From assembly GCA_017499595.2 (NCBI GenBank), contig CM039008.1, positions 1,922,001-1,986,000 on the forward strand: DNA of 64,000 nt, given 5' to 3'. This DNA is from Psilocybe cubensis (Eukaryota). This document shows, in pieces, positions 8,201 through 40,103 of the stretch. The translations under genes and the position numbers were made by a program. The first letter of the stretch is position 1. Each line of letters starts with the position of its first letter. The notes under the pieces were generated by a model. It did no database searches, was not told the origin of the DNA, and saw nothing but the letters and a program-made list of their open reading frames with translations.

Positions 8201-9550
8201 AGCAAATAGCCAGTACATGTCCGGATAATGAATCGATTGAAGCAAGGAAGCACTTGGGAGAAAAGAATTTATTAGCGATTATCTACCACTGGGTAATTCC
8301 GAGTGTTAATAAAGACTTCTTCTCCCATCTCGCTATGACATATATATAATAACCAGGCTTCTCGCAGGCATGAAATTAAAGATTACGATTTCGATTGCAT
8401 GGAGGCACTTTGACATATACGCCATGCTCAGAGTCAAAGCCTCAACGTGACTAATTTTGCATTGGGATGTGTGTAAAACGGTGCCGTAAAAATGAATTCA
8501 TTTCCCAATGCCTATTCTTGTGAAATGAATAGATTAGAGCTGATTATCGTTCTACTTATCGATAGCGTGCTATGTGTTATCTACGAGTGCGGGGAAGCTG
8601 CGAGGAAGCCGTCCTGTGATTGTAGCTTGGAAGCCGGCGGAGGATTATTTAAATAAGCCTGGGCTAGAACGACTGAGCCATGAGGTTGTGGGGTGAAGCC
8701 TCGAGGTTAGAACTGTATGCATGTAGATTGAACGTCAGCGGAGTGTATAGACGAGAGGGAGAATTGAGCCGTGTTTGGGTTAAGAGGATGTAGGTGTAGA
8801 GGTTTTACCTCTGTTTGTCGTACCGGCATTCTGTATCCTAGCATATTTACATTAAAATCCTTGCAAATTGGAAAAAGCGAGGCTGCAGGGTCTTTGTTAT
8901 TGGTCCTCAAGTCAATATATGCCATCTTGACTGCACCGTCAGCGTTGGAGAGGAGAGGTATTTTTTCTAACAGGGAACGGGAAAGACCCTTACAACTTCC
9001 CATGCGTCATCAGTGTGCTCTGCAGGCAGTTGGCGTGATCATCGCCGTTAAACTGGGTAAAGGACCAGTCACATTAGAGCGTTGACTCTGTAATAGCGCG
9101 GTGGAGGCGAGGCGAGGTGCACTGATGTTCCTCTTCGATGGACAATGTGTTATAAGAAACGGCTGAGTAGACCATGTACTGAATAAAGACGTGGCGAGCG
9201 CAGTATTTTACGCTTGATTGTGGGTGTTAGATACCATCAAAATTGTACTAAGTTACGCGGTAGAGTCGGTGATAAAGGTCAAAAGCCTATGCAAACCAGA
9301 AATGGTAGGTTTTAGATTGTAATACCAGTGGACAGGAAACATCCTACCGTTCTTGGTGATGATAAGCATGATCACAGCTATAGGTAGTAGTCAGCCAGCC
9401 AGGACTTTGGCTAAGCCAGGTAAAAATTCTTTCAAACCGTAGCTATTTCTCTATAAACCTACAAAACGAGAAACCGTATTCAATTTCAGACTTCCTAATG
9501 TTGTGGGACTGTTTGGCGCTTGTGGCGGTCACCACTCAGGTTCAATTGGT

Positions 9551-11721
9551 TTAGTCGTTAATTTCAATTCCTTCTCGAATCAAGGCCATCGCTGCAGAGC
9601 TTCTAGGCGTGATGACACATTTAAAAGGGACTGGATATCTAAGGCGCCAGGAAATGTTATCATTGAAGATTCTTGAGTTACAATATGACCAACACTCACG
9701 AAAGCATTCCAGTTGTGAATTCTGGCTTGAGGGCTATCGGGTTGCCAAAATCATCGACGGGTGGTTTGATTTCGAATACCGATAAAACCGACGAAATTAG
9801 GCAGTAAAGCCCATTGTCGCTCATGTGCCTTCCGGGGCATATTCTATCGAAGATGATATATAGCCTCTCTGTCACTCGGACGAATGAAAAATAGTTATCC
9901 TCACCGTCGTCCATAGCCAAAGGCAGCGCATTCTGGGCTCCTTACAGCGGGGTTAATTTTTCCATCTTTTTAATATCTGTCAGGATTATATTTCAATGGT
10001 TCCTCGAATTCTTCCGGGTCATGCAATATGGTCCTGCTTTGACATTAATTTTGCGCTTCTGATTGAAATGTCTTGGTCAAACCATGCATTTCCCAGTACA
10101 ATTGTGCCGCGGGGTATAAAATAGCCGTCGTATTCATCATCGGAAGACGATACATGGCCAACAGCTGCGTGGGACATTGGGTGAATCTCACCACATACTA
10201 TGAGTAACAACACCATACCTAGTGGTACGACCTGATGCCAGCGCATGCTTTCCTTAACCATAGCGTTAATGTAGGGCAGAGAAGGTCGGTCATCAAAATC
10301 CGGTAGACGTTTACCACCAAGGACAGCGTCAAGCTCGGTCTGAGCTTTCTTCTGTACTTCAGGGTAAAGTGCCATTGCTATAAAGAAAGTCTGAACAGTA
10401 GATACAGTCTGTAACCCACAAACGAAATCCCCGTTAGTCGAAGAAAGTAAAACTTGGGCATTGGGGAACTCACAGTATCCGCCCCACCTAGAGGTATCGT
10501 TGGCTTTCTCAAGCAATGAGACAATATAGAGAATAGTAGTTACATACCGACATATGAAACACCGGCAATACTCTCAGCAAGTTCTCGATCTTCTGGGTAA
10601 GTCGGATTGTTTTTATCAGGTAGCCCTTCGATCAACTTCGTAGCCAAACAAGGCACGGCAGTTCCATTTTCCTGTTCAGAGGATTTAGTAAAGAGTGCAT
10701 ATCCAGATGGATTCAAGGTGTCGCAAACCATTGCTTGTTCAACATATTTGAACGGTATCTGACTAAGATCCTCGTTTGCCCTTCTCCAGTGAGCCGCCTT
10801 CTTCTTGAACCCGGCACCAGGAAACCAAGAAGGGACATACTTGAGGGCGGGTACCAGGTCCACCAGAAATGATCCAGGGATACCCGCAGCCGCGAGTCCC
10901 TTAAGGGACTCGTGGCCAGTCGCCAGATATGGATCACCAGATTCTTTGACCTTGATACCATATGCCACGGTCATGATTGCGGCACCAAAGGAGCTTCATG
11001 AATGAAAATATTTATCAAGCATTGAAGTGAGGATGCCATTCAACATACTGGTGAATGTGATCCATGAAATGCTCAGGCGACAGAAGAAGTCGATGAAGTA
11101 ATGCTCGAGCTTCACGTAGTTGTATAGGTTGATAGTTCACAACCGCCTTGTGGTGGAAATGTTCGTTGAACAGTCTTCGATGTCGTCTCCACCATTGGCC
11201 GTAGGGTATCAAAGAGAAGTTGAAATCCGATTTCATTCTATCAAAGCAGAAAGTCAGCTTAGAGACGAATTTTTTTGGATTGTGATCCGAGTCCTTACAG
11301 TTCAATAAGCATAGGTAGCCGAAGTCTGTCTGAGTAGTTCGACGATCGTTTCTCGAATAAATCGTTTGTCCGTTTAAGGGACCCCAAAATAAGGAAGGGT
11401 TGCCCGAGAGCCTCAAAGTAAATCATATCACCTGCGAGAAGACGTAAGCTATTGAGACACCAAGAAATCGTGCAGATATTCACCGTATTTCTTGAACCAT
11501 TGGTCATATACGAGCCAAGGATGCTTGTGTGGTACCTGAAAAACACTACCAATCAATGGGTACCCTTTTGGACCTGGAGGAAATGGGAGTCCGTTTGGGT
11601 TTGGATTACGCGACTTTGCTTGAAGCTTCTTGATAATGACGGCATAAGCAACCGTCCCAATAACAGTCATGCAAATGGGATACGTTGCGAACAACGACTC
11701 CAATATTGTGAGGACAAACAT
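9551..11721 (-). CDS. Cytochrome P450 (basidiomycete CYP64-clan-like), multi-exon, apparently intact
   Basis: N-terminal hydrophobic anchor then PPGPKGYPLIG; I-helix GGADT on a 14-nt microexon (10474-10487); K-helix KESMRW (ExxR); PDRY; heme motif FGYGRR|ICPG across an intron; ATG at 11721, TAA at 9551-9553. Confidence 0.93.
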
Positions 11722-11840: not shown

Positions 11841-13441
11841 TGGATTGGCAGAATGAGTTTCCAATACGTGCAGTGAGACAACGTTCTTTTTTCATATTGA
11901 AAGTTTGGTCTGCACCGTCTGGAGACTTTGTCGGCAGGCTTTAATTGTACACCTTGCCTTCCGTTAGATTTAAGCTCGTGAGATGTCTTTTCAGTCGGAT
12001 CCAATGGGCAGTTGAGAGAATCATTTGCGGACATTACCTTGAATTTAACAACCTCCTTGACAGTAAACACAACTTGGAGAGGATACTTTGCATGGAATTG
12101 TACAGGTAGCTTTAGACGCTTTGTTGTGAAGATCCTGGATGGAATAACGCAGAGACATCTTTTACATCCTTGCGTGTAAGCGACTTGGGAGAGTGAAATA
12201 GGTTTGTGCCGCGCTAAGTACAGATGATTGTCAGCTGGTAGGAAGAGAAATACAGATCCAGACCTCGGATAGCTCCAAGACTCCTGCCATTCATGGGCAT
12301 TTCATCACACCAATCAAATTCCTACCCATACATACGGCTGTAAATTCATCCTGGTGAGAAACGCTGATATGCCTTGCGGTATTTTATTGGCAGCTCCATT
12401 GAAAAAAAGGTAAACAAAAGCTCACTGTCGAAAGTAAAGGATCCGCTTCCTTAGTTGTGGTATCAATCTCCATGTTACTAAACATAAGCTTCATCGAGAC
12501 ACCGGCAAACCAAAGAAACGAAACTATGGGCAAAGAAAGAAATGGGGTACATATTTCGGAAAGCACTTTAACGTTAGCCACAGGAGCCGCGGCGGTATTC
12601 CAATCTGGTTCATTGTGCTCGTGATCGTGAGTATAAGCTATTTTAAAATCTCTGTCGATGAAAGCTCCGAACCGGGCCATTCAACGAAAACGCGAAAAAT
12701 AAGATTCTAAACTTCAAGTTTGTATATTTGAGCAATGTCATGATATCAAAATGGATATTTCAATCGGCTATGATCTGGATTTTTCCTGGGGTTCAATGAA
12801 CTCCCGTTCATCCAGTCTAGTGATTTATCTCAACCCCTTCTTGAATCAAGGCCGCAGCTGCAGAGTTTCTAGGTTTGATAGCACATTTGAAGGGTAATGG
12901 ATATCTAATGGTACCCCGCATTATTATAAGTGCGCAACCAGAATCAGAATATATATTCTACTCACGATAGCATGCCACTAGTGAATTCTGGCTTGGGAAT
13001 CACAGGGTTCCCACCGTCGTCGATGAATGGCTTAATTTCGAAGACACTTAGGACAGATGAAATGATGCAGTAAAGCCCGTTGTCGCTCATGTGCCTCCCT
13101 GGGCATATGCTATTGGTAGTGATGTGTAATCTTTCTAGAGATGTCATAACTTAAGAAATATTTACTCACCGTCGTCCAAAGCCAAAGGCTGCGCAATCTG
13201 GGCTTCTTACATTGGGATCAAGCTTTCCATCCTTCAGATATCTGTCAGGATTAAATTCAAGTGGATCCTTGAATTCTTCAGGGTCATGCAAAATTGTCCT
13301 GTTTTAAAAAAGTTGCAGAAGTTTCACTGAATCTCAAGAGACATAGACATACCATGCATTTCCCAGTACAACAGTTCCACGGGGAATAAAATAACCATCG
13401 TATTCATCATCTTCCGAGGACACGTGGCCAACGGCTGCACA

Positions 13442-13800
13442 CAGCCATGTAAGCTATATTTATGTATCATACCCCGGCAGTTCCCCAAGTGCCATGATAC
13501 ATCCTGGTGGGGAGAGTCCCAACTGCCCAAGGTGATGTATCAGAGGGTCTGTGGGCGGTATAATCACTGCCGAAGCCTTGCCGGTTGATCCCAACCAAAC
13601 AATGCACCAGGCGGCCCCGCCGGGGAAATTTTGGGGATTTTGCACTGTTCTGTAGGCGTTTTGGCGAGAAAAGGACGCCGAAATAATCTATTAATATGTC
13701 TACATCTAAAACCGCCGTTTGCGCACATCAATGTGGGGGTGGCGGGGTGGATGCATTTGAGGCTGGTTGGATGACGATTTAAAAATAGGCTCACTGACAT
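13442..13800 (+). repeat. Left terminal inverted repeat of the KDZ element
   Basis: TTATGTATCATACCCCGGCAGTTCCCCAAGTGCCATGATACATCCTGGTGGGGAG... from 13460 matches the reverse complement of the sequence ending at 25810. It is near-identical for ~95 bp, then patchy out to ~350 bp (e.g. CCGTTTGCGCACA, CGGGGTGGATG, GGATGACGA). Confidence 0.9.
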
Positions 13801-13922
13801 CATAACGAGATTAGGCGATGCATTGATGGCGCCGGCTCGGTGAATGAAGGTATAAGATTGACCTGTACCCTCCTTATGATCTGTGTATCCAGTCCAGTAT
13901 AGTGTGGTTGGAATGTGTCTAC

Positions 13923-14052
13923 TTCTGTATAAGCGTACACCCCGCGTTCGAGACAGCGCCGGGACGGTCGTTTTTTGCCTGATTAATTTCTGTATCAGCG
14001 TACACCCCGCGTTCGAGACAGCGCCGGGACGTTCAATTTTTAACTGATTAAT
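13923..14052. repeat. Subterminal tandem duplication, 2 x 65 bp
   Basis: Core AGCGTACACCCCGCGTTCGAGACAGCGCCGGGACG is identical in both copies; each copy ends CTGATTAAT. Confidence 0.9.
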
Positions 14053-14389
14053 ACTGGATCCTGAAAACCTCTTGGGTACTCGCAAGAATCACATATTGTA
14101 CAGTCGTTTAGTCGAGTGGGTATCGTGTCATGTATCGTTGTATGAAGTTGGCAAGGTGAGAGATCGACTCCCCAACGTTCATATTTTTCTGCCGCGTGGG
14201 TTTAGTTTCGACGCTAACTTGATGTTTCGGAGTCCGTATTGTAAATTCTTATGATACTGTCCTTCATGTAAATTCAAAGAACCTTAAATAGAATTTGTAT
14301 GATTGTATTATAAAGATGACATTTGTAAAATAGAGCAGCTAATAGAAGTATACTACCCGGCCGCTATATGATTTTGGCTGCGCAGCATT

Positions 14390-16785
14390 TTAGCTATCAT
14401 CTTCCGCATATACCCAGAACTTCGAACTCTTGACAGGTTTACCGTTTCGGGTGAGGACAACCGAAGTTGTTGGCATCGGCGGCAATCTTTTTCGAAAGGT
14501 GATAAACAAATATAAGCAAAAGTCTAAAAATTTCAATGTAAAGACTTACTTTGCTTGCGCAGGAGCAGCAGTAGGAGCGGTGCTTCGTGTCAGTCGTTGG
14601 GTTTGAGGAGGTGCAGATGTCGGTGGTGGTGCAGATGTTGGTTGAGGTGCAGATGTCGGTGGAGGTGCAGATGTTTGAGTCGTACTTCTATCAGTAGTTG
14701 AACTTGATTGAGTACAACCGTAGCAGTAATATGGTCAGTTAGAAATTCAAGTTGGTTTTTAATAATGTGTACTCACCTAGTATTGGCCTTTCGCTTTTTG
14801 GAGGAAATCTTTGATTTTGAATCCCTTTTACGCTTTGAAGACGTTTTCGAGACAGCCTCAATCGCTGTGGTTACTCCCATTGTGTTTCTCGAAATTGTAT
14901 TTGGCGTGTTTGTTACCAACGTAGGTGTAGAGGCGGCGTTTGTTGGGTTTGTTACTGCGACAGATGGGTGGTTGGTACGAGGCGGCAAACCAACAGGTGG
15001 ACTTATCGATGTCGGGGTAGAGGTATTCTCCAATGGGGATACCACTTTTTCAACCATAGGGCGGTTAGTCCCGTGTTCCAGATTTGCTTTAGGAGACTGT
15101 GTTGCGGAAACACAAGCAGAAGGAGATGGTGGCACAGAACGAGGAATGGACGGAGATGGTGGCACTGAGGGAGGAGCAGCTGGAGACGGTGGTGGTGAAG
15201 GTTGTGGTGAGTTTTCTCCATTACTGCCTTCATTTCCGGAAACATTGTCGTCGTCGGCTTCCAACGTATACGGCCAGTCTTCCGGAAAGGGATTATGCCC
15301 CTTCAAATGGCTTTGTGAGTCCACGTCAACCAAATCTTCATTTTCAGCTGTAGGAGACAGTTGGGCTGGAGAAACCTGACGTAAAGTAGGAACCGCATTC
15401 CTTCGTTTTCTAGATTTCTTTTTTTGGGTGCGAGCTACTGATTCAGACACAGGCATGTTTTCAGATCCAATAATTGGAATGGCCTGAATTGATTCGTCTT
15501 CATTTCTGAAGGCTTCGGATCTAGCCATCGGAAGGTGCTCTTGATCTTGTGGCAATGCCCACTCTTTATATTGAGTTTTTGCTTTAAAATACTTCAGCAG
15601 TGTTGAAAATAAAATACAACATATAACTTACAGTAGCATTTGCGAAGAAAATCACCGAAGATCGGAATAATAATGGTCTTGTACCTGAATCGCTCTGCAC
15701 GACCAAAATTCATCTGAATATCTCCACAAGTAACTCCTGAATGAACGCTATTCACGTTGAATGGAAGAAATAAGAACACGGACTAGTATAACAAAAATCA
15801 CGAACCTGATAGTGCCCAACATCCCCCCATTTGCAGGTTCAGGCCCACCGGCCACAAATGTGCACTTCCACCCTGTAATATGGCAGAGCGAATCAAGGAT
15901 AGTGGTCATAAAAGGTCCAATTCCTTCAATAGCACTAATTAAGAATTAGTATACCGTTAGAAACCATAGGAATTCAAAAAAGAAAAACAAAATAGCCGCA
16001 CCGTTGACGTTGTTCCGGAGTCAATGATTCCCCACTAATATCTATGTCGGCGTTGTATTTTGCCATTGCATCACTATGCTCATCTGATGCTATCTTTGTC
16101 CATTTTCTCTTCTCTTCGGAAGTCAACTCCTGGAAAAGTCGCCTTGCAATCTCGTCCCGGGTCTTGGCTAGCAACTTCACTGGAACAAGTGGGTCCATCG
16201 ATTCAATTTCTGCCTCAATGGCATCGCGATTGGCCTTTTCCTTTCTCCACGTGTTCACCGGGGTCTTCAACCGTGGGCGATTAGGTTCTTTTCCCACTAG
16301 TTGTTGGAGGAGAAGTGTGAAGAGATTTTGGGCATCGTTGTTTGCCGATGACGCTTTGGGAGTCTTGTGATCATGTTTATATTGATATTTAAACCAACGC
16401 TTAATTTTCTGTAAATGAAAAGACGTGTTGTGACGTCAGCCTGTCAATCCCAAAATGGCCAGGCACTCACGCCACGAAAGGTCTGGAGACGATGTTGTCT
16501 CTCTTTCTTCTGCTTGCCTAAGATCTCCTGTTCTTCCGGTGAAAGGGTTTCAGGATCGCATTCCGGAATTTCTTCCTCTGCTTCATCGTCTTTAACAGCA
16601 GCTAACTCATCTTCAGTAGGTTCCCAGCTCTCTGGCTTATCCAGAGGAAATCTCTTCAAAAATCGTCGACTTATATCAGCTAGTGTTTCGGAAACTAGCT
16701 GTTGTTCGACAGCCCTTGCATATAGCGGCTTTTGTTCTAGTAGAAAAGCCTTTCGAAGGCCTTGAAAACCACCAGGATTGGGCAT
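14390..16785 (-). CDS. KDZ cargo gene A: divergent HMG-box-like region, conserved globular segment and Pro/Ser/Thr-rich tail (7 exons)
   Basis: The spliced frame is open from MPNPGGFQGLRKAFL through KIKRWFKYQY, RRLFQELTSEEKRKW (HMG-like), TGWKCTFVAGGPEPANGG and IFGDFLRKCY, four TSAP-repeat units at ~14610-14675, to ...FWVYAEDDS* at 14390. Confidence 0.75.
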
Positions 16786-17103
16786 TGAAGTCTACAATGG
16801 TAATCTGGTGAGTTCTTTATGCAGGTTGAATGAATTTTTAAGTCTCTTACCTGCTGTCGAATCGTCAGAAAGTATGATAGTGTTACGCCGGTGTAACCTT
16901 ATAATTTCAATCTCAAATGTATGTTCATTATTATCTTGGCCTTTGCAGCGGCAAAAGTATGAAGCACAATACCCGCTATTACCAGCCTATCAGCGACAAG
17001 AACTCTTCCGATGTCCATCCTTTTTTAACCCCCGACTCCGGAAGTCAACGTGTTCTGGACAGTCATTGTGTCCTTTCCTTGTTCATCCACCTTCGCTTCT
17101 AGA

Positions 17104-18090
17104 ATGAATCCAGAACTGGCCTTTCACAGGCAGTCTCACAATCCTGGATATCTTCAGTTTCTCAATGACCTGCCAAATGTCTTTATTTTCATTGTAAGAG
17201 CTCCGCTGCATGTCATTATCAACGAATATCGGTAAGTTTTATTGTTTGTTATTGTTGTATGTAGCTAAATTTTCTGTCGGAATACAGTTCCATTGGCGTT
17301 GACAGCCTTCTACCTCTTGCGGAAAGAGACCTTGAAGAGTTCTTGCTATCCCGCCAAGATTCGGGGGATGTGCATTTCATTCACCCCCCTCATCCTGATC
17401 TTTCTGGGCCTCCAAGGCGCATTACTCCTGTTCTAGTGGTTGTTCGAGGCCCAATTGATAATATGTTGAGGAGGTCTACGTGAGTCTCAGACATTTTCAT
17501 GCCCTGTATCTTTTTCTTATGCTTGCTTTCTTAGTGATTTCATGGTTGAACACGTCCTCAGTGTGCCAAAGGATGTTCTCAACAATTTTCTTGATGAACA
17601 TCGAAAGACAGGTGCACTGCAGCTTGTGCCCGCACAGTCTTGGTCTGCAGACTATGAATCTGCGCCTTCAACCCGCCTTCGACGCCTTCCCGACACCGTT
17701 TACGTCCGATGGCCTTATTTTGGGAGGCTTTCAGCTGCATCAACAAGAATTCGTGTAGGACGAAATCCACGGCAACAAGCTGCAGGGAGCATTGACGCTG
17801 ACGGTGTTGCCATTGTCCGCTCATCTACCCATGGACAACACGCCAACGCTGCTCTCAACTCCGACAACGACAACGACATTGGCAACACTAGCAGTGATTC
17901 CTCAGATCTGCGTGAATCAATCAGTGTTCAGCCTCGCCGAGCTTCTGCACGTCTCAAAGCGTCTACGACAGCATCTACGACAGCATCTACGTCAGCTACC
18001 TCAGACACCCGAAGATCCCAACGCCTTGAAAATCTAAGGTTGGTTTCATCGTGCCCTAATTGCAAGGGGAAGAAGGCCCATCGGCATTAA
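17104..18090 (+). CDS. KDZ cargo gene B: unassigned ~291-aa protein, 3 exons (17104-17231, 17288-17479, 17535-18090)
   Basis: Two canonical GT-AG introns join into one open frame MNPELAFHRQ...SIGVDSLLPLAERDLEEFL...DFMVEHVLSVP...SSCPNCKGKKAHRH*. Confidence 0.65.
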
Positions 18091-18266
18091 ATATCTACGT
18101 ATTTAGCTACAATGTGGTAGTACAGTTTCTTAAAATTTAACTTCTCTCTTTTGCTCATTATAAGATTATGTGCAGTTAGTTTAAAAGGTGTAATAAAATT
18201 GAAAAATGTTGCAACTACTATATTAAACAAGCTACATGTTGAGCTTCTAGATACCATCGTGGAAGT

Positions 18267-18768
18267 TCAGTTGGTAGAGAACAACTTGAATAAGTGTCGT
18301 TCAAATACCTTTATTCTTTCCTCTAATTTTTTATCTTTCTCTAATTTATTCTTGCGAAAGAAGCTATAAAGTCGGAGGTTAAGCATAATCTCAAGGTATC
18401 CACAAAGTATTGCCTACCGGAGGAATCGAGCCCTATTATTGATTCTGTTTCGATGTTTTTCACGATAACGCTTCTGAGCTTCACGGTGTTTCTCTCTAGC
18501 CACGGAAAGTTCTTCTTTAGACATCCGATCTCTTGAATCATTGATTAGATTGACTTTTAACATATATTTTTAGACGCTTACCTCTGTCGTCTCTTCCTTT
18601 CACGCCCTTTTCTCTTTTCTTCTTCGTGGTTTCTGTTGTCGAGAACGGTGAAGTTTAGTAGCGGTCAAGTGAGGTGAATACATACAGATAATAAAGATTT
18701 TTGCGTCTATTTAACTGATAGTCACGGTCAGGATTGGATTTGAAGTAAAGATGTTTTCGGGGTGCCAT
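18267..18768 (-). CDS. KDZ cargo gene C: small, highly basic alpha-helical protein (~115 aa, 4 exons)
   Basis: Spliced product MAPRKHLYFKSNPDRDYQLNRRKNLYYLNHEEEKRKGRERKRRQRDRMSKEELSVAREKHREAQKRYREKHRNRINNRARFLRFFRKNKLEK...; all introns are GT-AG and about 50 nt. Confidence 0.65.
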
Positions 18769-19536
18769 GATGAGGTGAAGGATAGAACCAGTAATGATCG
18801 ACAAAGGCTGATTGAAAATTTGCCAAGGTAGAAAATGCGGAATATTATTGGTTTCTAAATATAGACGGGAAGACAAGAATGGAAATAGGCATTGGGACTC
18901 GAGTTTTCGAATTTTGAGGTTGCAATATATAGTGCAACAGAGGGTACCATCTATATATAAATGTAGATACATGACCTAGAAGGTCTATAGAGCTGAAATG
19001 TCATTGAAATTAGTACCAGAGGTCTCTGGTTAAAAGTGGGATTGTTGCACGTTTTTGGGCGGAAGACCAACACAGTATTGATGCATATTGATGGGTCAGT
19101 TTATGGCAACATTTGAGTACATCAACTTAACACATATGAGCAGTCCAAAAAGTTTGACAATATATCATTCAGGCTAATTATACCTTCAAATATATGTCTT
19201 TATTATGCCGACAGGTTTCAAATTGGTCTTTCTATCGACTAATCTTTGTTGCATGAGTGGCACGGGCTTTTCCGAGAATCACCGCACAATATCAGACCTT
19301 TTCATGTAACACTCGCGAAATACGGGCATCGATACAAAATTTTTGTGATATACATATAGTAGATGACCAGCTCTATCTATTTGTCAAGTTATTGTATAGA
19401 AAAACACAATTTTCAGTGTCCTATTAGCTTTGCATCATGGCATGATTGGCGAGAATCACTGCAATTGAAATCAAGAACATGAATATTGTACATATTTTAA
19501 ACAGCATATCAAATAACTACCAAGACATTGTATCGA

Positions 19537-21165
19537 CTACTCCCGGAGAACAACTGGTATCAAGTTCACACCTTTAATCCACCTTAAAGACTCTTCTTGA
19601 GCATACGCAGCTAAGCCGTCAGGACTGAGGGTTGCGAGGTATTTTGCCTTTGTCTGGCATTTGTGGGCAACCCAACGAAAAATCCCGCCCGCAGTGTATT
19701 GAGTAAACGAATATCGTCTCTCGTTGGAAGAAATGGGGACGTTGGAGTGGGAAATGAGGGCGGAGGGAAGCAGAATGGTAGAGCCGGGGGGGAACTCGAT
19801 GACTAGTCCTAATTCCCAGAGAATGAGATGCCCCCCTTGTGTTGGATCGAAATTGCCAAGCGCGGTGACAGCACAGTATCCGTAGGGAAGATTAGAGAAG
19901 TCCTTGTGTCTATGGCAGACTGTACAAGGTCCCAGGTTGTAGGTGGCGGCTGAAAAAATGCTGGAAGGGAAGACATGTTTCAAGCCGGGGTCTTTGTGAA
20001 GTTCCTTCAAGTTGGATGCGTAGGCGTCAAATAAATCTTTAGCCCAGGTGTGCATAGCACCTGTGGAATCATGATAATTGGTTAGCAGTGTTTTTACTGT
20101 AGAGGACGGATACGCACCTGAGGCAAAGCCGGCCAACCTTTTGAACGGCTCCAAGCCATTGAGCCAGTCCAGCAACACCTGGTTCACCTTGTTGTTGCGA
20201 AGATTTGATGGCGAGGTTTGTCCACCGCCAAAAGAAACACCGCAGTGAAGGGAATCGAAAGATCCACGACGATTTGGTTTCTTCGGCGGGATAATGCGCG
20301 TTCGTGCTATTTCAAGGGCATCTACAGCAAGACCCATCAGATTATGCCATTGTCCGTCGTCTGGGTGTCCTGCAAGAATAAGAATGGCGCGGCCAGATGA
20401 GTCGGAGACAAACATTGGCTTCCTATGATATGAAACGCGAGTTTAGTGCATGAAAAAGTGAGATTGTACATGTACATACTTTCCATCCCACTTCACAAGT
20501 TTGAACTTATGCTCTGAAGTAGGACCCGTAAGCTCCTCCAGAGTATACATCCTCGACGACTTGGAACGGTCGTTAATGCCAATAAACCCGGTACGAGCAG
20601 CACGTCCTTTCTCCGTAACAAATGTGCTGCTGATTCGTTGCGCACTTTTGACATACTTCCGATGGGAAGATTCGCGAGGCACTGAGTCAACGACTGAGCC
20701 TTTAGTTTGCTCACGTCGATGAGCTCATGCTGCATTTGCGGAGGCATGTTGTCGGGCAGCTCGATGAGGCGGCTTTGCTTTTTTGCGGGGCTTCAGCTTC
20801 GGGTCCGCCGTTGTGGTGACCATGTGGAGAGATGGGGCCAACACCATCTCTTCAGAAGGAATGGTGCACTGCGAAAACGGCGGGCTTGATGAATACGATG
20901 TCGAGATATGCAGGGGAAAAATTGGAGGTGGAAGCAGCATGTCGTGTGCATGATCGTGAGTAGGAGACGGATCCTGACACTTGAGCGAGGGGGTACCGTG
21001 TTCTGGGAGTGAGATCTTGGCTGAAATGACAGGAGATGCAGGAGGAGATGGCTCTGGGGATGTGAGCGGTGATAAACTGAACAGACCATCAGTCTGACCA
21101 CACAGATCAGTCCATTCTTCCAAAGCTACGTCGATGGAGAAATCGGTGCGCAACGTGGGCGGCAT
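19537..21165 (-). pseudogene. TET/JBP-family 2OG-Fe(II) nucleobase dioxygenase with one in-frame TGA upstream of the catalytic domain
   Basis: Catalytic motifs GVSFGGGQ, HKD (HxD), EFPPGSTILLPSALISHSN (distal His) and RYSFTQY (2OG Arg) are intact. The frame from MPPTLRTDF (21165) reads ANAA*AHRREQ... with TGA at 20725-20727; two introns. Confidence 0.85.
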
Positions 21166-21623
21166 TTCGAGAAAGAAAGTCGTTCTTTTTGAAGACAAAG
21201 CAATGATATTAGCAATGGGCAGGCAAACGGGCAATAGATGGGATGGCGAGTTACCACTGGTGGCTCAGTGTATGTCCGGGCTCGAATATTCCTAAGCCAC
21301 CGAGTGGTGAATATTGAATAGTGATAGGATGGTGGGGGTTAGGAAGCGGAGTGCGTACTTAGTTGAGTTTTATAGCTTGTGTTTGGTTGACAGGTAAGTT
21401 GAAGTGCCATTGATTTAGGGTCCATATTCAAATTGTTGATTTGGGGCACGCGTTTACGCGTTCAACCACGTGACTTATTCGTCTTTCTGCGAATGTCCTG
21501 CTTGGCCCATTTGATTTGCTTAATTACTTCGAAGTCAAAAAGCTTAAAGGTGCTTTTAATCGTCTCGTTGACAAAATCACGCAAATCGCCCAGCTTCTCG
21601 ACAACTCTCATTAATATTTATAC

Positions 21624-24600
21624 ATGACAAATGCACTGAAAAGACGCCGAATTGGGGCCTCAAGCTCAACAGAGACATATAGGGATGCTATTCCTTTGCC
21701 CGACAGTTTTGCAACAATCCGTTCCAGTGAAGGCACGGCGGAGGGTAGAGTCAATTATTCTACTATTCTTTCCGCTGGAGCGTGGGACGAGGCTACATCT
21801 TGGATACCTCAAGACGACAATATGTATTCCTTGATGCCGGATAGTACTGGTTTCGACCTTGCTGTAGAAGGCGACTTTATGGATGGAGAGGACGATGACA
21901 TTGTGGTGCCTAATGCAGAGGGCGAACAACAACAAGACGAAATCCAGTCCATACCAATAACACCCGCTGTGCCCGGTGTCAAGGCAAAACAAAGTTTGGT
22001 ATCAGTGAGTCGAACAATACATTATAATTTTTTTGGATTATTACTTACCGTTTCACGCTACTTTAGAAACGCCCGAATGTTGTCTGGTGCTCATTGTATC
22101 GACAGACATACCTAGAGGAACTTATTCGGTGGTCTGGCCGGGGCGATTTTCGACATCTTCAATCTTGTCCCGATTGCGTTGCTCGAGGGGTGGAAACTTT
22201 AGGCCGAGCAGAGTATAGGTGTAGGGAATGCTTCTCTCCAGACCTGACGTGTAACAGTTGTTGTATTAAAAGACATAGACTTCACCCGTTTCATCGTATT
22301 GAGGTATGTACTCAGGTTTAACGGCCCAATTTCTGATTTTGACTTAAATTGTTTTAGCAATGGAACGGCTCAAGTTTTGTAGACGTTACGCTGAAGGAGC
22401 TAGGTCTGATCATCCAGTTGAACCATGCTGGTGCTTACTGCGATAACCCAATTCCGTGTCATTCAAAAATGTTGATTCTGCATACGAACGGCATCCATTC
22501 GTGCAACATTCAGTACTGCGGCTGCTCAAGGGCTATTCCTCCACACCTCCAGCTTCTTCGTCGGCGTATATACCCAGCAACCCAGCTAGCTATGAAGAGT
22601 TGTGCAACATTTGAACTCCTTCGACATTTACATCGACTTGCCCTCACAACAAAGGCCTCTACCTACGACTTCTATCGATGTCTTGAAAAGTCGACTACAA
22701 ACCTTGGTATTGATGTACCAAAGTCACGATACAGGGCTCTCATGAGGATGGTTCTCCAGTGGCGGCATTTACAGATGCTGAAGTGGGCAGGCCGAGGACA
22801 CGATGAACGGGGAGCGGCAGGTACTTTACCTGGAGAATTAATGGTCAAATGTCCATCTTGTCCGCACCCTGGCATCAATCTGCCAGATAACTGGCGGGAT
22901 GCTCCTGATAATATGAAGTAAGCGGACTAGTCTATAATCAATACTATTACTGACTTCAGATAGGTTTTTGTATGCGGTCATGATTTGCCTAGATGCAAAC
23001 TTCAGATTAAAAAATCAAATGGTTTCAAATTACTCCCAGGATCCAGGGCTGGGCTTGGGTCTGGCGTACATGATCCACCGAACAAAGTATGAGGCGTACG
23101 TCAAAAGTAAAGCAAACGAAAACGATGTATGTGAAATTTGTTTGTTACCCCTTTTCAAGTCAAAACTGATAGGTGGAGGTAGATAAGCACCTGCGTAGGT
23201 TTTCAGGCACTTGCTAAGGCAAACAGCAAGTTTTCGAAGGGCCTGAGATATACCGGAGTGGGAATGGGTGTGTGCGGCAGATCAGAAATGATTTTAGGAG
23301 TTGGAAATCTTCATAAGGATGAACGGTGAGTTAAAACCTTTAACGACTACAGATTACCTGACTTATCTATAATGATAGCTATGCCAACATGGACTATATT
23401 TTTGGGACGATTTTAAAGGCCCTCACTGTCGTCTCCGTTCTTGCCAGTTATGACATTGCCTGCCAATGGTTCCTCAACCTTCTTAGGAGAATGCAGGAAG
23501 ACTGGCCGCCTGAAATCAAACCATCGTCGGACATGAGGTTTACTCCCGCAATCCCGAAACTTCATGCTTCTATGCACAAACAGTCTCATGCTAACCACGA
23601 TGTCTACTCGTTGAACCTCATTCCTGGGGCTGGTCAATCTGATGGAGAATGCCCTGAACGTGTGTGGGGCCCGCACAACCCTGTTGGAAATGCCACAAAA
23701 ACCATGGGCCCTGGTGCCAGACAAGACACTCTCGACGACCATTTTGGCTTCTGGAATTGGTTAAAGTACACGTCTATGCGTATCACTCTACTTAAGAGAT
23801 ATCGACGGGCAGTCGCGGATCGAAATGCTCAGGTTGAAGGACATCGTGGTCTGACCGAATCTGTCAAAAAGGAAAATCCGCAGCTGATCGATGTTTGGGA
23901 GAAAATGTGCATTGAGTGGGAATTGGACAAGTTTCCGAAGGACAAGAAGAAAAACCCTTACTATATGCCAAGTATAAGTGAGTTCTCCACATTTTCAAAG
24001 CTCAATGACTTCACAGTAATCATGACTGGCTCAGCGTTAAGCGAAGCTCAGGTGAAGAAAGACCTTGCAGAGAAGGAAGCCAAATTTCTGGCACAGGGTG
24101 GCTCATTCCAGCATGCCACAACATCTTCGATGTTTATATCCCTTGGATTGGAGCTTGAAGAAGCCCAGTAAGTTTTTATACAGACTCCTAATAGCATAGA
24201 CTTACAATATTGGATAGACGACGTGTCAGACGTCTGGCAAAGGGGGTAGGACCTCATTCAACAATCCGGCAGGCAGGGTCTTTGACCGAACAACGAAACA
24301 TTCTCTCAACTCGTATTCGGGCATGGGAGCAGCTCTTGCCGGTCTACATACCAGGAATTGTCCAGTATCAAACAGACCATCCGATTACGACCAAGACTAG
24401 CTACGCTGAAGACGCCGTTCTCTATCTGCCCTCATCAATTCCAGAACCCTGTCGATCACGAATCTGTACCCCCGGACTTGCCAATATTGAGAAGGAGCTG
24501 CGGTTTGCCCAGATGTCAGACTCGCTGGCGTCGATTCGGCAAATTCTCATCATCAAATCGAGAATGATTGATTTCAAAAATAAAAACATTCGAGGACAGC

Positions 24601-25355
24601 GAGACGGTACACGATCGACTACAGTAATCGATCGCGTCCACGAGCGAGCACGTTTTGCGGCCTCAAAGTATCGGTCTGCACGAGCTGCACATTTGGCGTT
24701 AGCAGGAGATGGTGATTGGGAAAACACGTACCGGGTGTTGGAGGATAAGGATGTGAGGGGTTATCAGGATCCAGACCGATTACGACCTCGTGTAGGACGT
24801 CAAGGCATATACGAAGACGGGCATGAGCCATCTTTGAATGTTGAGGTTGATGAAGATGACGGTATAAACCTTGTGAATCAGCTGAGAAATAGGAGAGATG
24901 GAACAGGACAGACCAGAAGAACCCTATCATGGATATGGACAGTCACAATGGGCGTTCGAACGGAGGAGGACCACGACGACATTCTGCGAGTGGAGTGGGC
25001 GAAGAGTTGTGCTCGGGTTATGCGTGCCAAGGAGGAGGTGTTGCTTTTAAAAGAGGAAATGCGGAGAACATTAGCGTTTCTGAAGTACAAATCAGACTGG
25101 TGGGTAGAGCAACAGTCGGCACTTCCAGGTGCTCCAAAGGATTTGGTGGAAGGAATATCTGCATTTGCAATATCCCAGGCTGAGATCCAAACATCCCTCG
25201 CGAACCACTTTCGAAAGCTATGGGCGGCACCTTTCAGTGAGAATGTTGAGGAGGATGTCGACGAAGATGAGGACGAGGTAGAGGAGGTAGAGGATGTACC
25301 TCTAGATGAAGACGAGGAAGATGAATTTGAGAACGAGACAGAAGAGCCCCTGTAG
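21624..25355 (+). CDS. KDZ transposase with CxC2-type cysteine cluster, multi-exon, apparently intact
   Basis: CPDC...YRCREC...CNSCCIKRHRLHPFHRIE; HTNGIH..IQYCGC; CPSCPHPGINLP; catalytic LDANF, SYDIACQW, IPKLHASMH, DGECPERVW; RQDTLDDHFGFWNW; SWIW; RVEWAKS..EEVLLLKEEMRR; acidic tail. Confidence 0.92.
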
Positions 25356-25454
25356 TTTTACCCATGTAATTTCACTTTAGTCATCCAATAATAGTCGTTA
25401 ATTATTTATAGGACATCGACAGATGCGATCATAATTGATGGTATCAGAATGACA

Positions 25455-25827
25455 TCATGTTGGCACCCATCTATTTTAAAACTCGTCATCCGAGCGACCC
25501 CAGAGCCATCCACCCCGTCCTCCCCACATATTTGTGCGCAAACGGTGGCATTAGATAGTAGCTTTATTTATAGATAAAATTATCAGTTTTTCGTGGCCAA
25601 AACACCCATGAGAGAGTGTAAAACTGAAAAATTCTCCCTGCGGGGCCATTTGCTGCGTTGTTTGGCTTTTTGATGGCCCGGCACCCATCACTATGCCCGG
25701 CACCCATTCTGTAGCCCACATGCCCTCTGATACATCATCTTGGGCAGTTGGGACACTCCCCACCAGGATATATCATGGCACTTGGGAAACTGCCAGGGTA
25801 TGATACATAATAGTAGTCACTACAGGT
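25455..25827 (-). repeat. Right terminal inverted repeat of the KDZ element
   Basis: Reverse complement of 13442-13800 (see left TIR). Confidence 0.9.
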
Positions 25828-27674
25828 GCTGCACAACCAGTGTCAATGTGAGTACTTGTGCACAACTTGTATGTGCAGCAACACCATACCTAGCGGCGTG
25901 ACCTGATTCCAGCGCATACTCTCCATGACCATCGCATTAATGTAGGGGAGAGAAGGTCTGTCATCGAAATCCGGAAGACGTTTACCGCCAAGAACGGCGT
26001 CCAATTCGGCGTGTGCTTTCTTCTGCACTTCGGGGTATAGTACCATCGCCATAATGAAAGCCTGAACGGTTGAGACGGTCTTTAACGTATAAATTAGTTA
26101 TTCATTCAGGAAGAGGGAGATTTCTGGGTGTTTGTAAACTCACAGTATCTGCCCCACCTTTACGTAGTGTCAGTCTTCCATATATAAACGAGTTTGAACA
26201 AAATAATACATAAATACGTACCAACATATGATACAGCACTAATATTCTCCGCAATCTTGCGCGCTTCTGCATAGCTTGGGTCCCTCTTATCGGGTAGCCC
26301 TTCGATTAAGGCTGTGGTTAGACATGGTACTGCATCTCCCTTTTCCTATTCATCCGATTGCCGAGCATAGTCAGTAAAAGCTTGAAGTACCGAGGTTAAG
26401 TGGTATTTCCAACCATTTCTTGTTCGACGTGTTTGAATGGTACTTTGGCGAGATCCTCATTCACTTTTCTCCAATGAGCAGCCTTCTTCTTAAACCCAGC
26501 TCCAGGGAACCAAGAAGGGATATATTTAAGAGAGGGTATCATATCCACCAAAAATGAGCCAGGGATACCAGCTGCCGCTAATCCATTTAGAGACTCGTGG
26601 CCAGTTGCCAGATATGGGTCGCCAGACTCCTTGACCTTAATGCCATAGGCCACGGTCATGATTGTGGCGCCGAAGGCTCTGTATAATTGAAATTTAGGCT
26701 GTTAGACCCATGGAAGAGAAAAAAACATTCAAATCAACATACAATTCAATATGTTTCATGAAACCTTCAGGCGAAAAAAGCAGACGCTGAAGCAGCACTC
26801 TAGTTTCATGAAGTTGTATTGGAAGGTAGTTTGCGATAGCCTTCCTGTGGAAATGTTCATTAAATAATCTTCGGTGACGTCTCCACCATTGTCCGTAGGG
26901 TTGCATGGCAAAGTTGAAATCCGATTCCATGCTGTTGAGAATAGTAGCATAGTAAGACATCAACAAGCATGCTAAATTTAAGTTGTTGGAATTTACAGTT
27001 CAATAAGCATAGGTAACCGAAGTCTGTCTGAATAATTGGACGATCGTTTCTCAAACAAGTCATTTGTCCTTTTAAGAGACCCAAGAACAAGGAAGGGTTG
27101 TCCAAGAGCTTCAAAGTAGACCATGTCGCCTGCATGAAGATGTAAGCAATGGGGAACATTAAGATATCCACATAGATGTATACCGTATTTCTTAAACCAT
27201 TGGTCATATACCAACCAAGGATTTTTGTGCGGCACCTGGAGAACGCTGCCAATTATTGGATAGCCTTTCGGACCTGGGGGTAATGGGAGTCTGTTTGGAT
27301 TTCGATTACGCAACTTTGCTTGAAGCTTCTTGACTACATAGGCATAAGCGACTGTCCCAATAACGGTCGCATAAATTGGATAAGTCGCGAACAACGTCCC
27401 TAATGTTGTAGGAATGAGCATGGTGGGTAATTGATTCGAAAAGTAAAAGGTCTCCTGGGTTTATATTGGGCCAGGACTCGTAATCAGGCCTCAGGGGTAA
27501 CTAACGGCATCTAGATAAAAATGGAACCAGCACTTGCATCTGGCTTGTGACACTGATTCTCCAGTGGCAATGATCTAGATAACGAATGAGCTAACACGCC
27601 GAACCGCAATCACATTTAAACAGAAGTTAGCAAGAAATACGTATCGTAATTTATTATATTTACCAAAAACACGA

Positions 27675-27690
27675 GATAAGGTGGGCAAAA
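27675..27690. promoter_or_regulatory. 16-bp motif GATAAGGTGGGCAAAA upstream of P450 copy 2
   Basis: Identical to 11825-11840. Confidence 0.4.
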
Positions 27691-28763
27691 GTGCATTAAA
27701 AAAGGGGAATGCCTGAGATACATTAATCTCGTTTAGTATTGAAAAGTAATACAAGCTTGAAAATGTCTGCCTGACTCCGGATTTGATAGATATTCCGATC
27801 AACATCCGCTCTATCATTGGTCTCGTGAGACATCTATTTGATTGTATTCAATGGGTAGCCGAGGCTAATATTGCCTACAGGACCTCCACCATGACATCCT
27901 TTACTCGTTTGATACTGAGTGGAGAATTATACGTCAAATTTACTATATCAGCTGGTATAGAGATGGCGACATTGTGGAGTGTAAAGGTAGTAAACTTGCA
28001 CAATATGTTTTCTAACTCTGAAACGCTTGCTTCGTAGTGATGGCACGGTACAAAAATGAGTCGCTCAGAAACATTGGTATCAGCAACAGTCGTAAATATC
28101 GTCCACATGTGAATGATTTTAAAAATGGGCTTGCAACGATAAATCGAATCTCGACTGTGTTCTTGAAGAAATGTAAAGCGGTTTTTGATCATACCTTCGA
28201 CTCGAGAGCTTAAGGGCTGCCGTCCGAGGTCTGCTGATCAATACTTGCTACCTCTGACTACTAGGACAATTAAGGTTTAATACGGCATAGAATGTTTTAG
28301 AAAATGGCTCACGGACGCTAGGCGATTCAAATATCTTTGTCAGAAATGTTCACAGTGTGAAAATTGTGACTCAGATTTTTGACATGGGCTCCCTCGCCGC
28401 AACTTGTCACCGAAGTCTCACGAAGCGCCGAACGCATAACACGATTGTTCATTCGGTTGTTTCCGAGAAGGGCGTTTAGTTACATTACGTGATGAGTGTG
28501 AGTGTGACAGTTAACTACGCACGTGTATATATGTAGCTCGTGATCGTGAGATTAGCTATGTTTAGGTGAAAGCCACCCATTTGCTTTCGAATTTAGCATC
28601 AGTACTCTGGCTTAACGTTTAAACAGCTCCCTTCGATAGGCTACATCGATCGCAGGTTGTTGACAATATCAAAGTATCCCAAAATCTCGTTACCTTTCGC
28701 TATTCCCAACCCAAGGTACCTTTGAACACGTTATTGCTTCAACGGTGGTAACCCGGCTTCCCT

Positions 28764-34451: not shown

Positions 34452-37400
34452 ATGCGGGAGTGTAACGAATGGGCGGTTTAGAAACGCGACCAGAACGAAG
34501 GGTAGTGGTAGGAGCTGGAACATAATTTGAACGAAGGTTTTGGCGAACGATGGGAGGTGAAATAGGACGAATTGGATGAATAATATCAGTTGAGACTGTA
34601 TCTACGAGTGACCGTTTTTGAAAAGAAGAATCAAAAGAAAGGGAATGTGAAATTGGTGCAGGGGTGGCCAGGGCTTCATCGGCAGGGGCATGGGCAGCGG
34701 CAGAGGACGCGGGAGCAAGGTCTTCTTCGGCAGGGGCAGCAGCAAGCGAGGGAGCAGCGGGCAAGCGGGCAGGAGGGTCTTCTTCGGCCATCTGTGAATT
34801 AAACAAAGAATTGTCAGTACGTAAAACAGTTTCGGGGTCGTTAAACGATTGTTGAATTATAATAGGATGGGGGCGAGGTGAACGAGGATGTCGACGATGG
34901 AATTTGTCAATTAATTCATTGAATGTTGTCGGAATGTCAGAAAGAGGGATCCAAGAGTTTTCGGAGTCGGGTAAGTCACGCCATCGTACGAGATATTCAT
35001 AACGATGACCGATTTTACGACAGTCGAGAATATGAGAGATGGAAAGGGCGGGGTCAGCGAGATTAAATGGTTCAGGATCGGAATGGGGATGGAATTCAGA
35101 AGGGTCGGAATAGGGTTCGAGGAGTGAAGTATGAAAGACGGGATGAAGGCGAGAGAGATAAGAAGGGAGCTTGAGAAGGTAGGATTGATTTCCAACTTCC
35201 CGGATGACAGGGTAAGGTCCGAGACGTCGGTGGTCGAGTTTAAGTGAAGGACGGGTGGTGCGAATGTTGCGGCGAAGCAACCATACGAGTTGGTCAGGTT
35301 GATAAGAGGGTGATGGTAGGACATGTTGATTAAAGTATTTTGATTGTTTTTCTTGCGAAAACTGAAGTTCTGCACGAAGCTCTTGATGAATCTGGTCCAA
35401 ACGTTGAGCCAGATCGGCGGCGGCAGGGACAGATGAGTCTTCGGAGAGTTTGGGTTCGAAAGTGGGGTGAAAGGCATAGTTAGCGAAGAAAGGTGTTTGT
35501 TTTGTTGAAGAGTTTTCGGAGTTATTGAATACAAATTCTGCAAGAGGTAAGTAATCGACCCAGTCATCCTGCTGGTAAGAGCAATAAGCACGTAGGTAAG
35601 TCTCAAGCGTCTGGTTGGTACGCTCAGTCAAACCATCGGTGCGAGGATGAAAGGCAGTGGATGTCCGAACATCGACATCGAGCCTTGTCATTAGTTCTTT
35701 CCAAAAGTGCGAAATAAATTGTGCACCACGGTCTGAGACAATCGAGTCCGGAAGACCGTGATAACGAAAGATTCGATCCACGAATATCCACGCCAAATCT
35801 GGCGCAGACGTGGACTCGACGCACGGAATAAAGTGTGCGGCACGAGTTAAACGATCACAAACAACAAAAATTGAATCATACCCATGGGATTTCGGTAGCT
35901 TGACGATGAAATCCATCGATATCGACTTCCACGGGCGATTTGGAATGTCGAGAGGCTGGAGGATACCGTATGGTTTGTGTCGAGGAGCCTTGATACGACC
36001 ACAGGTATCACACGCAGCAACATAGCGGCGGATATACGTGTTGACGCCAGGCCATGAATAATCGCGCATAACCTTGTTCATAGTGAGAGCACGGCCAGGG
36101 TGTCCACCAAGAACACAGTCATGACGTTGATAGACGATTTCTTGACGTAACGACTTGGGTACGTACACACGACCTTTATGGAAAACCATATTGTCATGCA
36201 CCACAAAGTCACGATCGCCTCGAAGAACAGCTTCGCGCCACTCGATGTCTTCACGAAACGCAGATTTGAAGCGTTCCAAGAGTTCGGAGTTGTCGACATT
36301 GAGTGTTGTGAGGCCGGCGGAAGAAGGCAGAATTGAAATAGCATTGATAGAAGCGATATAATCTGTAGCATCAGAGGGAAAAATGCGTTCGGTATGAATA
36401 TGTGTCAGTAAAGCTTGGTGCTGGTGCATCAAGACGTCATCCCCCTTTTTAGGAAAGAAATCGGGGCGCCGTGAAGGAGCATCAGCCACGTTCTGAGCAC
36501 CAGGCAACCAGTCCAAACGAAAGTCAAAATCAGAAAGAAACATAGACCATCGTGCTTGACGACGATTAAGAAGATAAGAAGACATAAAATACTCAAGATT
36601 TCGATGATCACAGCGTACGACTACTGGCTGTGCAGTACCCATAAGCCATGGTCGCATGTCCCGAAATGAATCCACAATAGCGAGAAGTTCTTTATCGTGA
36701 ACTTCGTAGTTGATTTCAGCGGGACTGAACTTGCGAGAGTGAAACGCAACCGGATGTAGATGACCGTCTTCATCTGGCTGTTGTAAAACACCAGATAAAG
36801 CGAAATCGGAAGCGTCAGTGCATAGCGTAGCAGGCTTTGCAGGATTGAAATGTCGTAGAACCGGGTAAGACGTGAATACTCGTTTAAGCTTTTCGAAAGC
36901 TTGCCGTTCGACATCTGTAAAATCGAACTTAACGTTCTTGCGAGTTAGTCGGTTCAACGGAAGAGTGATTTCGGCGTAATGGTCAACAAAACGTCGATAA
37001 AAATTTGTAAACCCAAGAAAAGATTGAATGTCATGAACAGAATGAGGAACCGGCCAATCAGCTATTGTGGCGAGCTTCTTGGGGTTCATTTTGATGCCGT
37101 CAGCACCAATAATATAACCCAGGTACTCAACTTCCGTTTTGTCAAACTCACACTTCTTCGCGTTAGCGAAAAGATGCGAGTCACGGAGACGGTCGAGAAC
37201 AAGCTTGACATGTGCGTCGTGCTCTTCCTGAGTGCGAGAAAAAATAAGAATATCATCCAAATAAACAACACAAAACACGCCAATGAAATCGCGTAATGTG
37301 TCCTGAATAAAAGCTTGAAAAACTGAAGGAGCGTTAGTCAAACCAAAAGGCATAACGAGATATTCGTAAAGGCCGAGAGAAGTGCGAAAAGCAGTCTTCC

Positions 37401-40010: not shown

Positions 40011-40103
40011 TGTTGATGTGGCAAATAACCGGGCCGCGAACGACCGGAAGATAACGAAGGTTGATAAACAAGGATAAGATAAGAACTAGAAGAGATTTAT
40101 GTG

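Follow-up and report, generated by a model that had tools for sequence, protein, structure and literature searches.

The 64,000-nucleotide stretch of the Psilocybe cubensis contig CM039008.1 analysed here (assembly GCA_017499595.2, positions 1,922,001 to 1,986,000, forward strand; hereafter, the window, with positions counted from its first letter) carries a 12,387-bp transposon with 5′-CA...TG-3′ ends at 13442–25828. With a probability of roughly 85%, it is an autonomous cut-and-paste transposon of the KDZ superfamily bearing the signature of Kyakuja elements, inserted into a tandemly duplicated cytochrome P450 gene at an intron 3′ splice site. The encoded transposase, with a CxC2 cysteine cluster and a KDZ domain, is predicted to be transcribed divergently from a gene for a TET/JBP-fold dioxygenase. 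The element is a discrete unit, and its insertion site differs among strains. The initial annotation of the window had proposed a bounded mobile KDZ element with a TET/JBP gene, and this is borne out by Pfam matches (CxC2 and KDZ), by the structural similarity of the dioxygenase to CcTet found with Foldseek, by an empty site and by copies at other loci.

Boundaries, empty site and mobility of the element

The region 12300–28000 of the window was compared with four DNA runs from three studies, two of them taken as raw reads (X12 and X13) and two as contigs (X6 and X5). A joint from 13433 to 25828, which skips 12,394 bases and at which eight letters fit either side, was found in all four runs, weakly in X5; it is supported by 25 reads of X12, by 24 reads of X13, by one 12,876-nt contig of X6, in which either side exceeds 255 letters, and by one contig of X5, in which the shorter side comprises only 22 letters. 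The joint represents the allele without the element, in which the target is present once, so the empty allele that the initial annotation had suggested looking for in other strains exists in exact form. The sequence CTGCACA, present once in the empty allele, is found in the window on both sides of the element as a 7-bp target-site duplication (TSD; 13435–13441 and 25829–25835). The element is also present in these runs, at about half the depth of its flanks in X12, X13 and X6, and the reads and contigs that bear it leave the window sequence exactly before 13442 and after 25828; these loose ends and the empty-site joint together define its boundaries.

The sequences beyond the loose ends belong to other insertion sites. 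A duplication TAACATG was found on both flanks in X12 and X13, and CAGCTGT on both flanks in X6; the same right flank as in X6 is present in X5, which shows one further right flank. The duplication is thus 7 bp long at all three readable sites (CTGCACA in the window, TAACATG in X12 and X13, CAGCTGT in X6). The eight-base direct repeat GCTGCACA noticed in the initial annotation is indeed found at 13434–13441 and 25828–25835, and the length of the TSD had been left there at 7 or 8 bp; the shorter value stands and the longer one does not, since the eighth base on the left is A at both readable foreign sites and base 25828 is always G. The G at 25828 is, therefore, part of the element, which starts with CAGCC at 13442 and ends with CAGGTG at 25828, and this gives the 7-bp TSD and the length of 12,387 bp.

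A 9,185-nt contig of X6 is colinear with positions 13645–22801, with 67 differences and no gaps, which means that the cargo moves together with the ends. The same element is found, then, at no fewer than two other loci, with the two end bases identical, with TSDs and with colinear cargo; a BLASTN search found no second copy within the 64-kb window. These results are the opposite of the outcomes that the initial annotation had named as arguing against its reading: other copies share both ends and have TSDs instead of ending elsewhere or lacking TSDs, the cargo is found beyond this locus, and the empty site and the exact ends, reproduced in independent runs from three studies, speak against a mis-join. 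The family, in a mushroom that can be cultivated, has been active very recently, and it offers an exact empty allele and at least three insertion sites among strains.

Both flanks of the element derive from a single minus-strand cytochrome P450 gene. The 5′ part (25836–27460) is annotated as a truncated 399-aa ‘Cytochrome P450 monooxygenase COX2’, and the accession of this fragment is the next after that of the transposase gene; the 3′ part, with the haem-binding CPGRHM region, lies at 12815–13434. An uninterrupted tandem paralogue at 9549–11714 (minus strand) fixes the insertion point, as had been proposed initially: the left flank (12815–13438) matches the paralogue at 9549–10168 (72.7%) and the right flank (25870–27413) matches it at 10199–11714 (73.3%), with colinearity kept on either side of the break. 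Read on the minus strand, a 54-nt intron of the paralogue ends in ..ACGCAG and is followed by CTGTTGGCC. In the interrupted gene, ..TGTGCAG|C precedes the element and occurs once more past it, ahead of CGTTGGCC; comparison with the intron end of the paralogue places the insertion exactly at the intron 3′ splice site. The P450 gene is whole in X12, X13 and X6, so that the element disrupts it in the reference strain alone among the strains examined. The contig carries several COX2-type P450 genes in tandem (P0392, P0393, P0394), among them the interrupted one; identification of the latter as PsiH of the psilocybin pathway was considered and dropped, as the annotation indicates a COX2-type P450.

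Terminal inverted repeats and encoded proteins

The terminal inverted repeats (TIRs) occupy 13442–13788 on the left (plus strand) and 25471–25828 on the right (minus strand). Their best part consists of the arms 13460–13572 and 25698–25810, 113 nt long and 88% complementary, which correspond to TIR positions 19–131 and align without gaps (99 matches of 113). The tips are poorly matched (7 of 18 positions); the right end was set at 25828, where both ends align ungapped from the first base. BLASTN extends the similarity to 13460–13788 versus 25810–25471 (74.4% over 344 columns, E-value 1.8e-52), in agreement with the imperfect TIRs of about 350 bp described in the initial annotation. The octamer ATGTATCA occurs five times in the 64-kb window, each time inside a TIR, at 13462 (+), 13495 (−) and 13535 (+) in the left one and at 25728 (−) and 25801 (−) in the right one. 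Their number is not unusual, five or more being present in 7 of 100 shuffled sequences; their placement in the TIRs is unusual, and these repeats may be regarded as candidate transposase-binding sites. Long TIRs were also found in two related metagenome loci, from a set of 80 collected by means of the TET alignment; they measure at least 210 nt at 98% in locus L004 and at least 107 nt at 100% in locus L001, both values being lower bounds, as the sequence ends inside the TIR. Two copies of a 65-nt unit, 91% alike, form a tandem repeat at 13923–14052, between the left TIR and the end of gene A.

The transposase gene occupies 21624–25355 on the plus strand and matches P0240 (1116 aa) and P0121 (1038 aa); apart from introns, the open reading frame (ORF) is that of JR316_0011711 (P0121), with 100% identity over the queried part. 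Pfam searches with the window ORFs revealed CxC2 (E-value 1.3e-36) and KDZ (3.7e-29), and the full annotated protein P0240 matches KDZ (PF18758) over profile positions 1–217 of 217 (3e-53) and CxC2 (2.2e-35); at E ≤ 0.01, the Pfam search of P0240 found CxC2 and KDZ only, and no SWIM, CxC1 or CxC4. The frame of the transposase is intact in the window copy. Its ATG at 21624 (+) and the ATG of the TET gene at 21165 (−) are divergent and 458 bp apart; a second divergent pair is formed by the ATG of gene A at 16785 (−) and that of the candidate gene B at 17104 (+), 318 bp apart, and the gene order with two divergent pairs described in the initial annotation is confirmed, its two spacers included.

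The TET/JBP-fold dioxygenase gene, with two introns, is located at 19537–21165 on the minus strand and, apart from introns, corresponds to JR316_0011710 (P0001). A search with its 301-aa ORF found 544 homologues at E ≤ 1e-3, nearly all of them hypothetical proteins of Agaricomycetes. The signature of Fe(II)/2-oxoglutarate (2OG) dioxygenases is present, and intact in most copies of the gene: H382, D384 and H435, forming the HxD...H metal triad, and the 2OG-binding R446 are invariant in all 20 aligned sequences and are found in the window ORF. The model of this protein predicted with AlphaFold (AF2) has a predicted local distance difference test (pLDDT) score of 74, exceeding 80 in the catalytic half, and a Foldseek search with this model, whose double-stranded beta-helix fold is nearest to those of known TET enzymes, ranked CcTet (7vpn, 6e-14), NgTet1 (4.9e-9), human TET2 (1.7e-8) and CMD1 (3e-7) ahead of FTO and AlkB. 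CcTet of Coprinopsis cinerea (7vpn, 7w5p, 8jkk) is the best structural match, with a template modelling (TM) score of 0.57 by target length and the same Fe(II)/2OG triad; it differs in sequence, with 12–13% identity in the structural alignment and no profile match at E ≤ 10. The fold and the catalytic residues, consequently, identify the protein as a member of the TET/JBP group whose sequence is far from that of CcTet, and the TET/JBP gene recognised initially is upheld by the structural match, with the Pfam Tet_JBP score below the cut-off. An assignment to the PE-type TET enzymes, which possess HxE (PMC12730594; statements referring to this paper and to PMC11343200 concern the passages covered), was rejected, as the motif is HxD. 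According to the same paper, the AG-type TETs of Kyakuja elements have Asp at the position of CcTET Asp337 and Gly or Ser at that of Gly331; an ungapped count from HxD places an invariant Cys and an invariant Asn, respectively, at these positions in the family of the window TET, which can serve as a lead, since the positions were counted without the alignment of that paper.

The TET frame of the window copy contains three in-frame stops. One is situated in a canonical intron and the third is the terminal stop; the remaining one, a TGA at 20725–20727 (codon 147), is not removed by any intron, and the NCBI model of the gene bypasses it by an artificial intron. In the near-identical paralogue JR316_0012692 (P0002), which encodes 504 aa and lies on another contig, codon 147 specifies Arg, and base 20727 is G (CGA) in all X12 and X13 reads and in the X6 contig; X5 has the A of the window. 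The stop is thus a CGA>TGA change at a CpG. As it lies upstream of the catalytic domain, this domain is probably not made and the window copy probably yields no TET enzyme, unless translation restarts; the description of the element as complete in the initial annotation has to be given up in this respect.

Other substitutions follow the same direction. Among the 29 listed differences within the element (a part of the 155 over the whole compared stretch), 24 are transitions. At 14 of the 29, all four runs agree against the window, and 12 of these 14 are transitions, each replacing a C or G of the runs by a T or A in the window; the polarity was assigned by parsimony, the base common to the four runs being taken as ancestral. 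Six of the 12 GC>AT transitions are at CpG, and the stop in the TET gene is a thirteenth GC>AT change, found against three of the four runs. This pattern is suggestive of deamination of methylated cytosines in a silenced copy, and the window copy, with its TET frame stopped and its GC>AT changes, appears to be decaying. Copies with an intact and with a stopped TET gene offer a natural experiment for the idea that TET protects the element from silencing by methylation and from deamination of methylated cytosine.

Gene A (14390–16785, minus strand) is predicted to have seven exons and to encode a protein of about 690 aa with a folded, mostly helical N-terminal part of about 360 aa and a long tail rich in Ser, Pro and Thr. 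The paralogue of A in P. cubensis, P0244 (671 aa), is 83% identical to the second-exon ORF over the part aligned by phmmer, and a tblastn search with it recovered seven exons in order, from 16785 down to 14393, without a stop inside exons. The family comprises 147 cluster representatives at E ≤ 1e-3, typically 600–850 aa long; with the first exon, the ESM Atlas returned only unnamed basidiomycete clusters (score 0.97). The predicted structure is confident for residues 1–360 (mostly helices and a small sheet), and the remainder is disordered. With this model, Foldseek gave no match at E ≤ 0.001; HMG boxes are seen repeatedly among the best of the matches short of significance (E-values 1.4–5, TM scores by target 0.4–0.6, 67–93 columns). 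Pfam searches with the ORFs of A, B and C, with ORFs of the related loci and with 10 full-length relatives of A gave nothing credible. The HMG label given to gene A in the initial annotation is, therefore, not sustained by Pfam and can be kept as a weak lead from the structural model. The disordered tail of protein A includes SAPPPT-type repeats encoded by 18-nt tandem repeats at 14601–14672 (within 14561–14710).

Gene C, with approximate ends at 18270–18768 (minus strand), is predicted to consist of about four short exons and to encode a small basic protein that contains the conserved motif H-x-E-A-Q-x-R-Y-R. Related loci contain a conserved block on the same strand 0.7–1.3 kb after TET, in the position of gene C, and tblastx revealed gene C at the same offset from TET in L013 (2.4e-5), L004 (1.4e-4) and L052 (8.6e-4); H, A, Q, Y and R of the motif are invariant in all nine aligned gene C ORFs. 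Gene A was found in 14 of the 80 metagenome loci, always on the TET strand and 3.4–6.8 kb downstream. It is present in every one of the nine loci in which a divergent transposase is accompanied by 4.69 kb or more of sequence downstream of TET, and in 10 of the 16 loci in which this sequence is 7 kb or longer. In metagenome loci, at 31–44% amino-acid identity, transposase, TET, C and A retain their order and strand, and A, TET and transposase occur within a few locus tags of one another in two diverged sister families of P. cubensis (locus tags 0012061 and 0012063; 0001679, 0001682 and 0001684), on the assumption that locus tags run along the contig. Comparative evidence of this kind indicates that genes A and C travel with TET and transposase in related elements, in the same order and on the same strand.

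Gene B (17104–18090, plus strand) consists of ORFs only. Related loci contain an opposite-strand gene in its position, to which the gene B ORFs showed no tblastn or tblastx match, and the ESM Atlas result for a gene B ORF (score 0.80) is of low recognition, at the noise level; gene B is an unsupported ORF and is regarded as a candidate only. Accordingly, four of the five genes claimed initially (A, C, TET and transposase) stand, and B found no support from Pfam, tblastn/tblastx or the Atlas. A V-G-I-F-T-S-W-type motif encoded in the related loci resembles, as judged by eye, the N-terminal domain of RNase H1 and the caulimovirus viroplasmin; Pfam gave no support for this.

The runs may also contain partial relatives of the element. 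A contig of X5 joins 13541 to 21257, skipping 7,715 bases, with a shorter side of 25 letters; it may represent a deletion derivative in which the left TIR and the transposase are preserved and A, B, C and TET are missing. In X12 and X13, groups of 5–10 reads diverge from the window sequence at 15536, 15568, 21259 and 21301 (five groups reach at least eight reads, X12 and X13 taken together), which suggests related elements sharing only parts of gene A and of the spacer between TET and transposase.

Family assignment and alternative explanations

The association of KDZ transposase genes with TET/JBP genes was reportedly described by Iyer in 2014. Complete TET-containing (TET+) Kyakuja elements, including their termini and TSDs, have been in the literature since December 2025 (Kojima 2025, PMC12730594), and, hence, the kind of element found here is not new. 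The KDZ domain and the CxC cluster of the transposase, within a bounded element that has a TSD and evidence of mobility, place it in the KDZ superfamily. TET+ Kyakuja families have 7-bp TSDs and 5′-CA..TG-3′ termini (PMC12730594), and the combination of both in the window element is the Kyakuja signature and not that of Zisupton; further likenesses to the published TET+ Kyakuja elements are the presence of KDZ and TET/JBP genes in one bounded element, the host from Agaricales and the HxD metal motif. Compared with the published descriptions of Kyakuja, the TIRs of about 350 bp with ATGTATCA, the accessory genes A and C and a TET far from CcTet are points of difference. The main text of PMC12730594 does not mention conserved accessory genes, nor does it contain the word Psilocybe, though the supplement may list a Psilocybe family, TIRs or extra ORFs; a literature search, not aimed at Psilocybe, returned no title or abstract opening naming this genus. 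The Cryptococcus elements KDZ1–3 (Dileera) resemble the window element as giant KDZ elements (9–11 kb) that have long TIRs (236 bp for KDZ1), additional genes without an assigned function and observed mobility into genes (PMC11343200), but differ in the 8-bp TSD, the CxC1 cluster and the Dileera clade; a TET gene is not mentioned in the passages of that paper covered.

Several points weigh against the proposed reading. The match of the TET ORF to Pfam Tet_JBP (PF12851) scores 21.7 and 19.4 bits, below the gathering score of 34.9; seven of 20 relatives match this family at E < 0.01 (best 9.5e-7), and a profile of the 20 sequences found nothing at E ≤ 0.01 among PDB sequences, and no TET even at E ≤ 10. 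Six of the 16 metagenome loci with long downstream sequence have no gene A, none of these six having a transposase match; in L067, which does have a transposase, no gene A was seen in the 4,248 nt downstream of TET. The near-duplicate loci L008–L010 and L068/L072 mean that the locus counts overstate independence. The gene models of A, B and C and the expression of all genes are predictions, and the substitution spectrum comes from a partial list (29 of 155 differences). The L. bicolor elements Kyakuja-1_LB and Kyakuja-2_LB have no TIRs (PMC12730594), in contrast to about 350 bp at 74% identity here; the absence of TIRs is a descriptive trait of two Kyakuja families, not a definition. The assignment to Kyakuja was made by comparison with published descriptions and should be read in this sense.

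The alternatives can be judged by the same data. A Zisupton-type element with 8-bp TSDs, the comparison drawn in the initial annotation, shares with the window element a transposase of the KDZ superfamily, and is suggested by the eight-base repeat flanking the window copy and by the TIRs, which are present in Zisupton as well (PMC12730594). Zisupton has 8-bp TSDs (PMC12730594, summarising Bohne et al. 2012) and a transposase with CxC4 and SWIM (PMC11343200), though, and neither of these domains was found at E ≤ 0.01 in the transposase of the element, which contains CxC2; only seven bases are duplicated at the three sites, the eighth being A at the two other sites against the G that stays with the element, and the ends align ungapped from the first base when this G is included. 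A Zisupton origin is, for these reasons, very improbable. A mis-join of the assembly or a segmental duplication is so improbable as to be negligible: the empty site, like the exact ends of the element elsewhere, recurs in independent runs from three studies, nothing was found in favour of such an explanation, and the gap of 100 N in the window, at 45709–45808, is far from the element.

It is also conceivable, and we consider it improbable to a lesser degree, that the element is mobile and TET, A and C are passenger host genes, or that TET serves the host genome-wide. The window copy has lost its TET frame and kept its transposase frame, and oxidised methylcytosine in Coprinopsis and Laccaria extends beyond Kyakuja elements (PMC12730594), both of which would fit such an explanation. 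Random passengers would be expected to differ between elements, however, and the transposase–TET–C–A order and strand are conserved in the diverged metagenome loci, the arrangement is kept in three diverged families of one genome, and the catalytic residues of TET are invariant.

For an autonomous KDZ transposon with the Kyakuja signature, the following mechanism can be proposed. The transposase would bind the subterminal ATGTATCA repeats in the TIRs, cut at CA/TG and integrate with a 7-bp stagger. TET would oxidise 5-methylcytosine, and perhaps N6-methyladenine, on or near the element (CcTet acts on the latter according to a summary in PMC12730594); this activity could keep the two bidirectional promoters free of silencing by methylation and slow the deamination of methylated cytosine. 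Protein A, in which three helices may form an HMG-box-like part, and the small basic protein C might act as DNA-binding helpers. The anti-silencing role of TET is conjectural, and the function of transposon-borne TETs lacks experimental validation according to PMC12730594.

A bolder suggestion, which we consider unlikely, although less so than any of the above alternatives, is that the element represents a distinct five-gene lineage of the Kyakuja type, characterised by long TIRs with ATGTATCA, a non-AG TET subfamily, DNA-binding A and C proteins and a loss of TET that exposes a copy to GC>AT decay. If this were so, the Asn and Cys at the positions of CcTET Gly331 and Asp337 might reflect a different substrate preference of TET, A and C would act in cis by recruiting TET or the transposase to the element, and the CGA/TGA allelic series would illustrate the exposure of a copy to GC>AT decay upon the loss of TET.

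Other features of the window

An apparently intact chromovirus of the Ty3/Gypsy group is located at 34453–40085 on the minus strand. Its gag ORF (38850–40085) contains Retrotrans_gag and Ty3_capsid domains, and pol (34453–38865), a single ORF of 1471 aa, contains protease, reverse transcriptase, RNase H, integrase, SH3 and chromodomain regions. A 558-aa ORF with a 3′–5′ exonuclease domain (DNA_pol_A_exo1, 1.8e-12) at 43576–45249 (minus strand) adjoins the gap of 100 N. The GC-rich region 48715–54623 (plus strand) encodes an STE-like transcription-factor domain (48715–50454) and C2H2 zinc fingers (52023–54623) and is probably the gene of a Ste12-type regulator.

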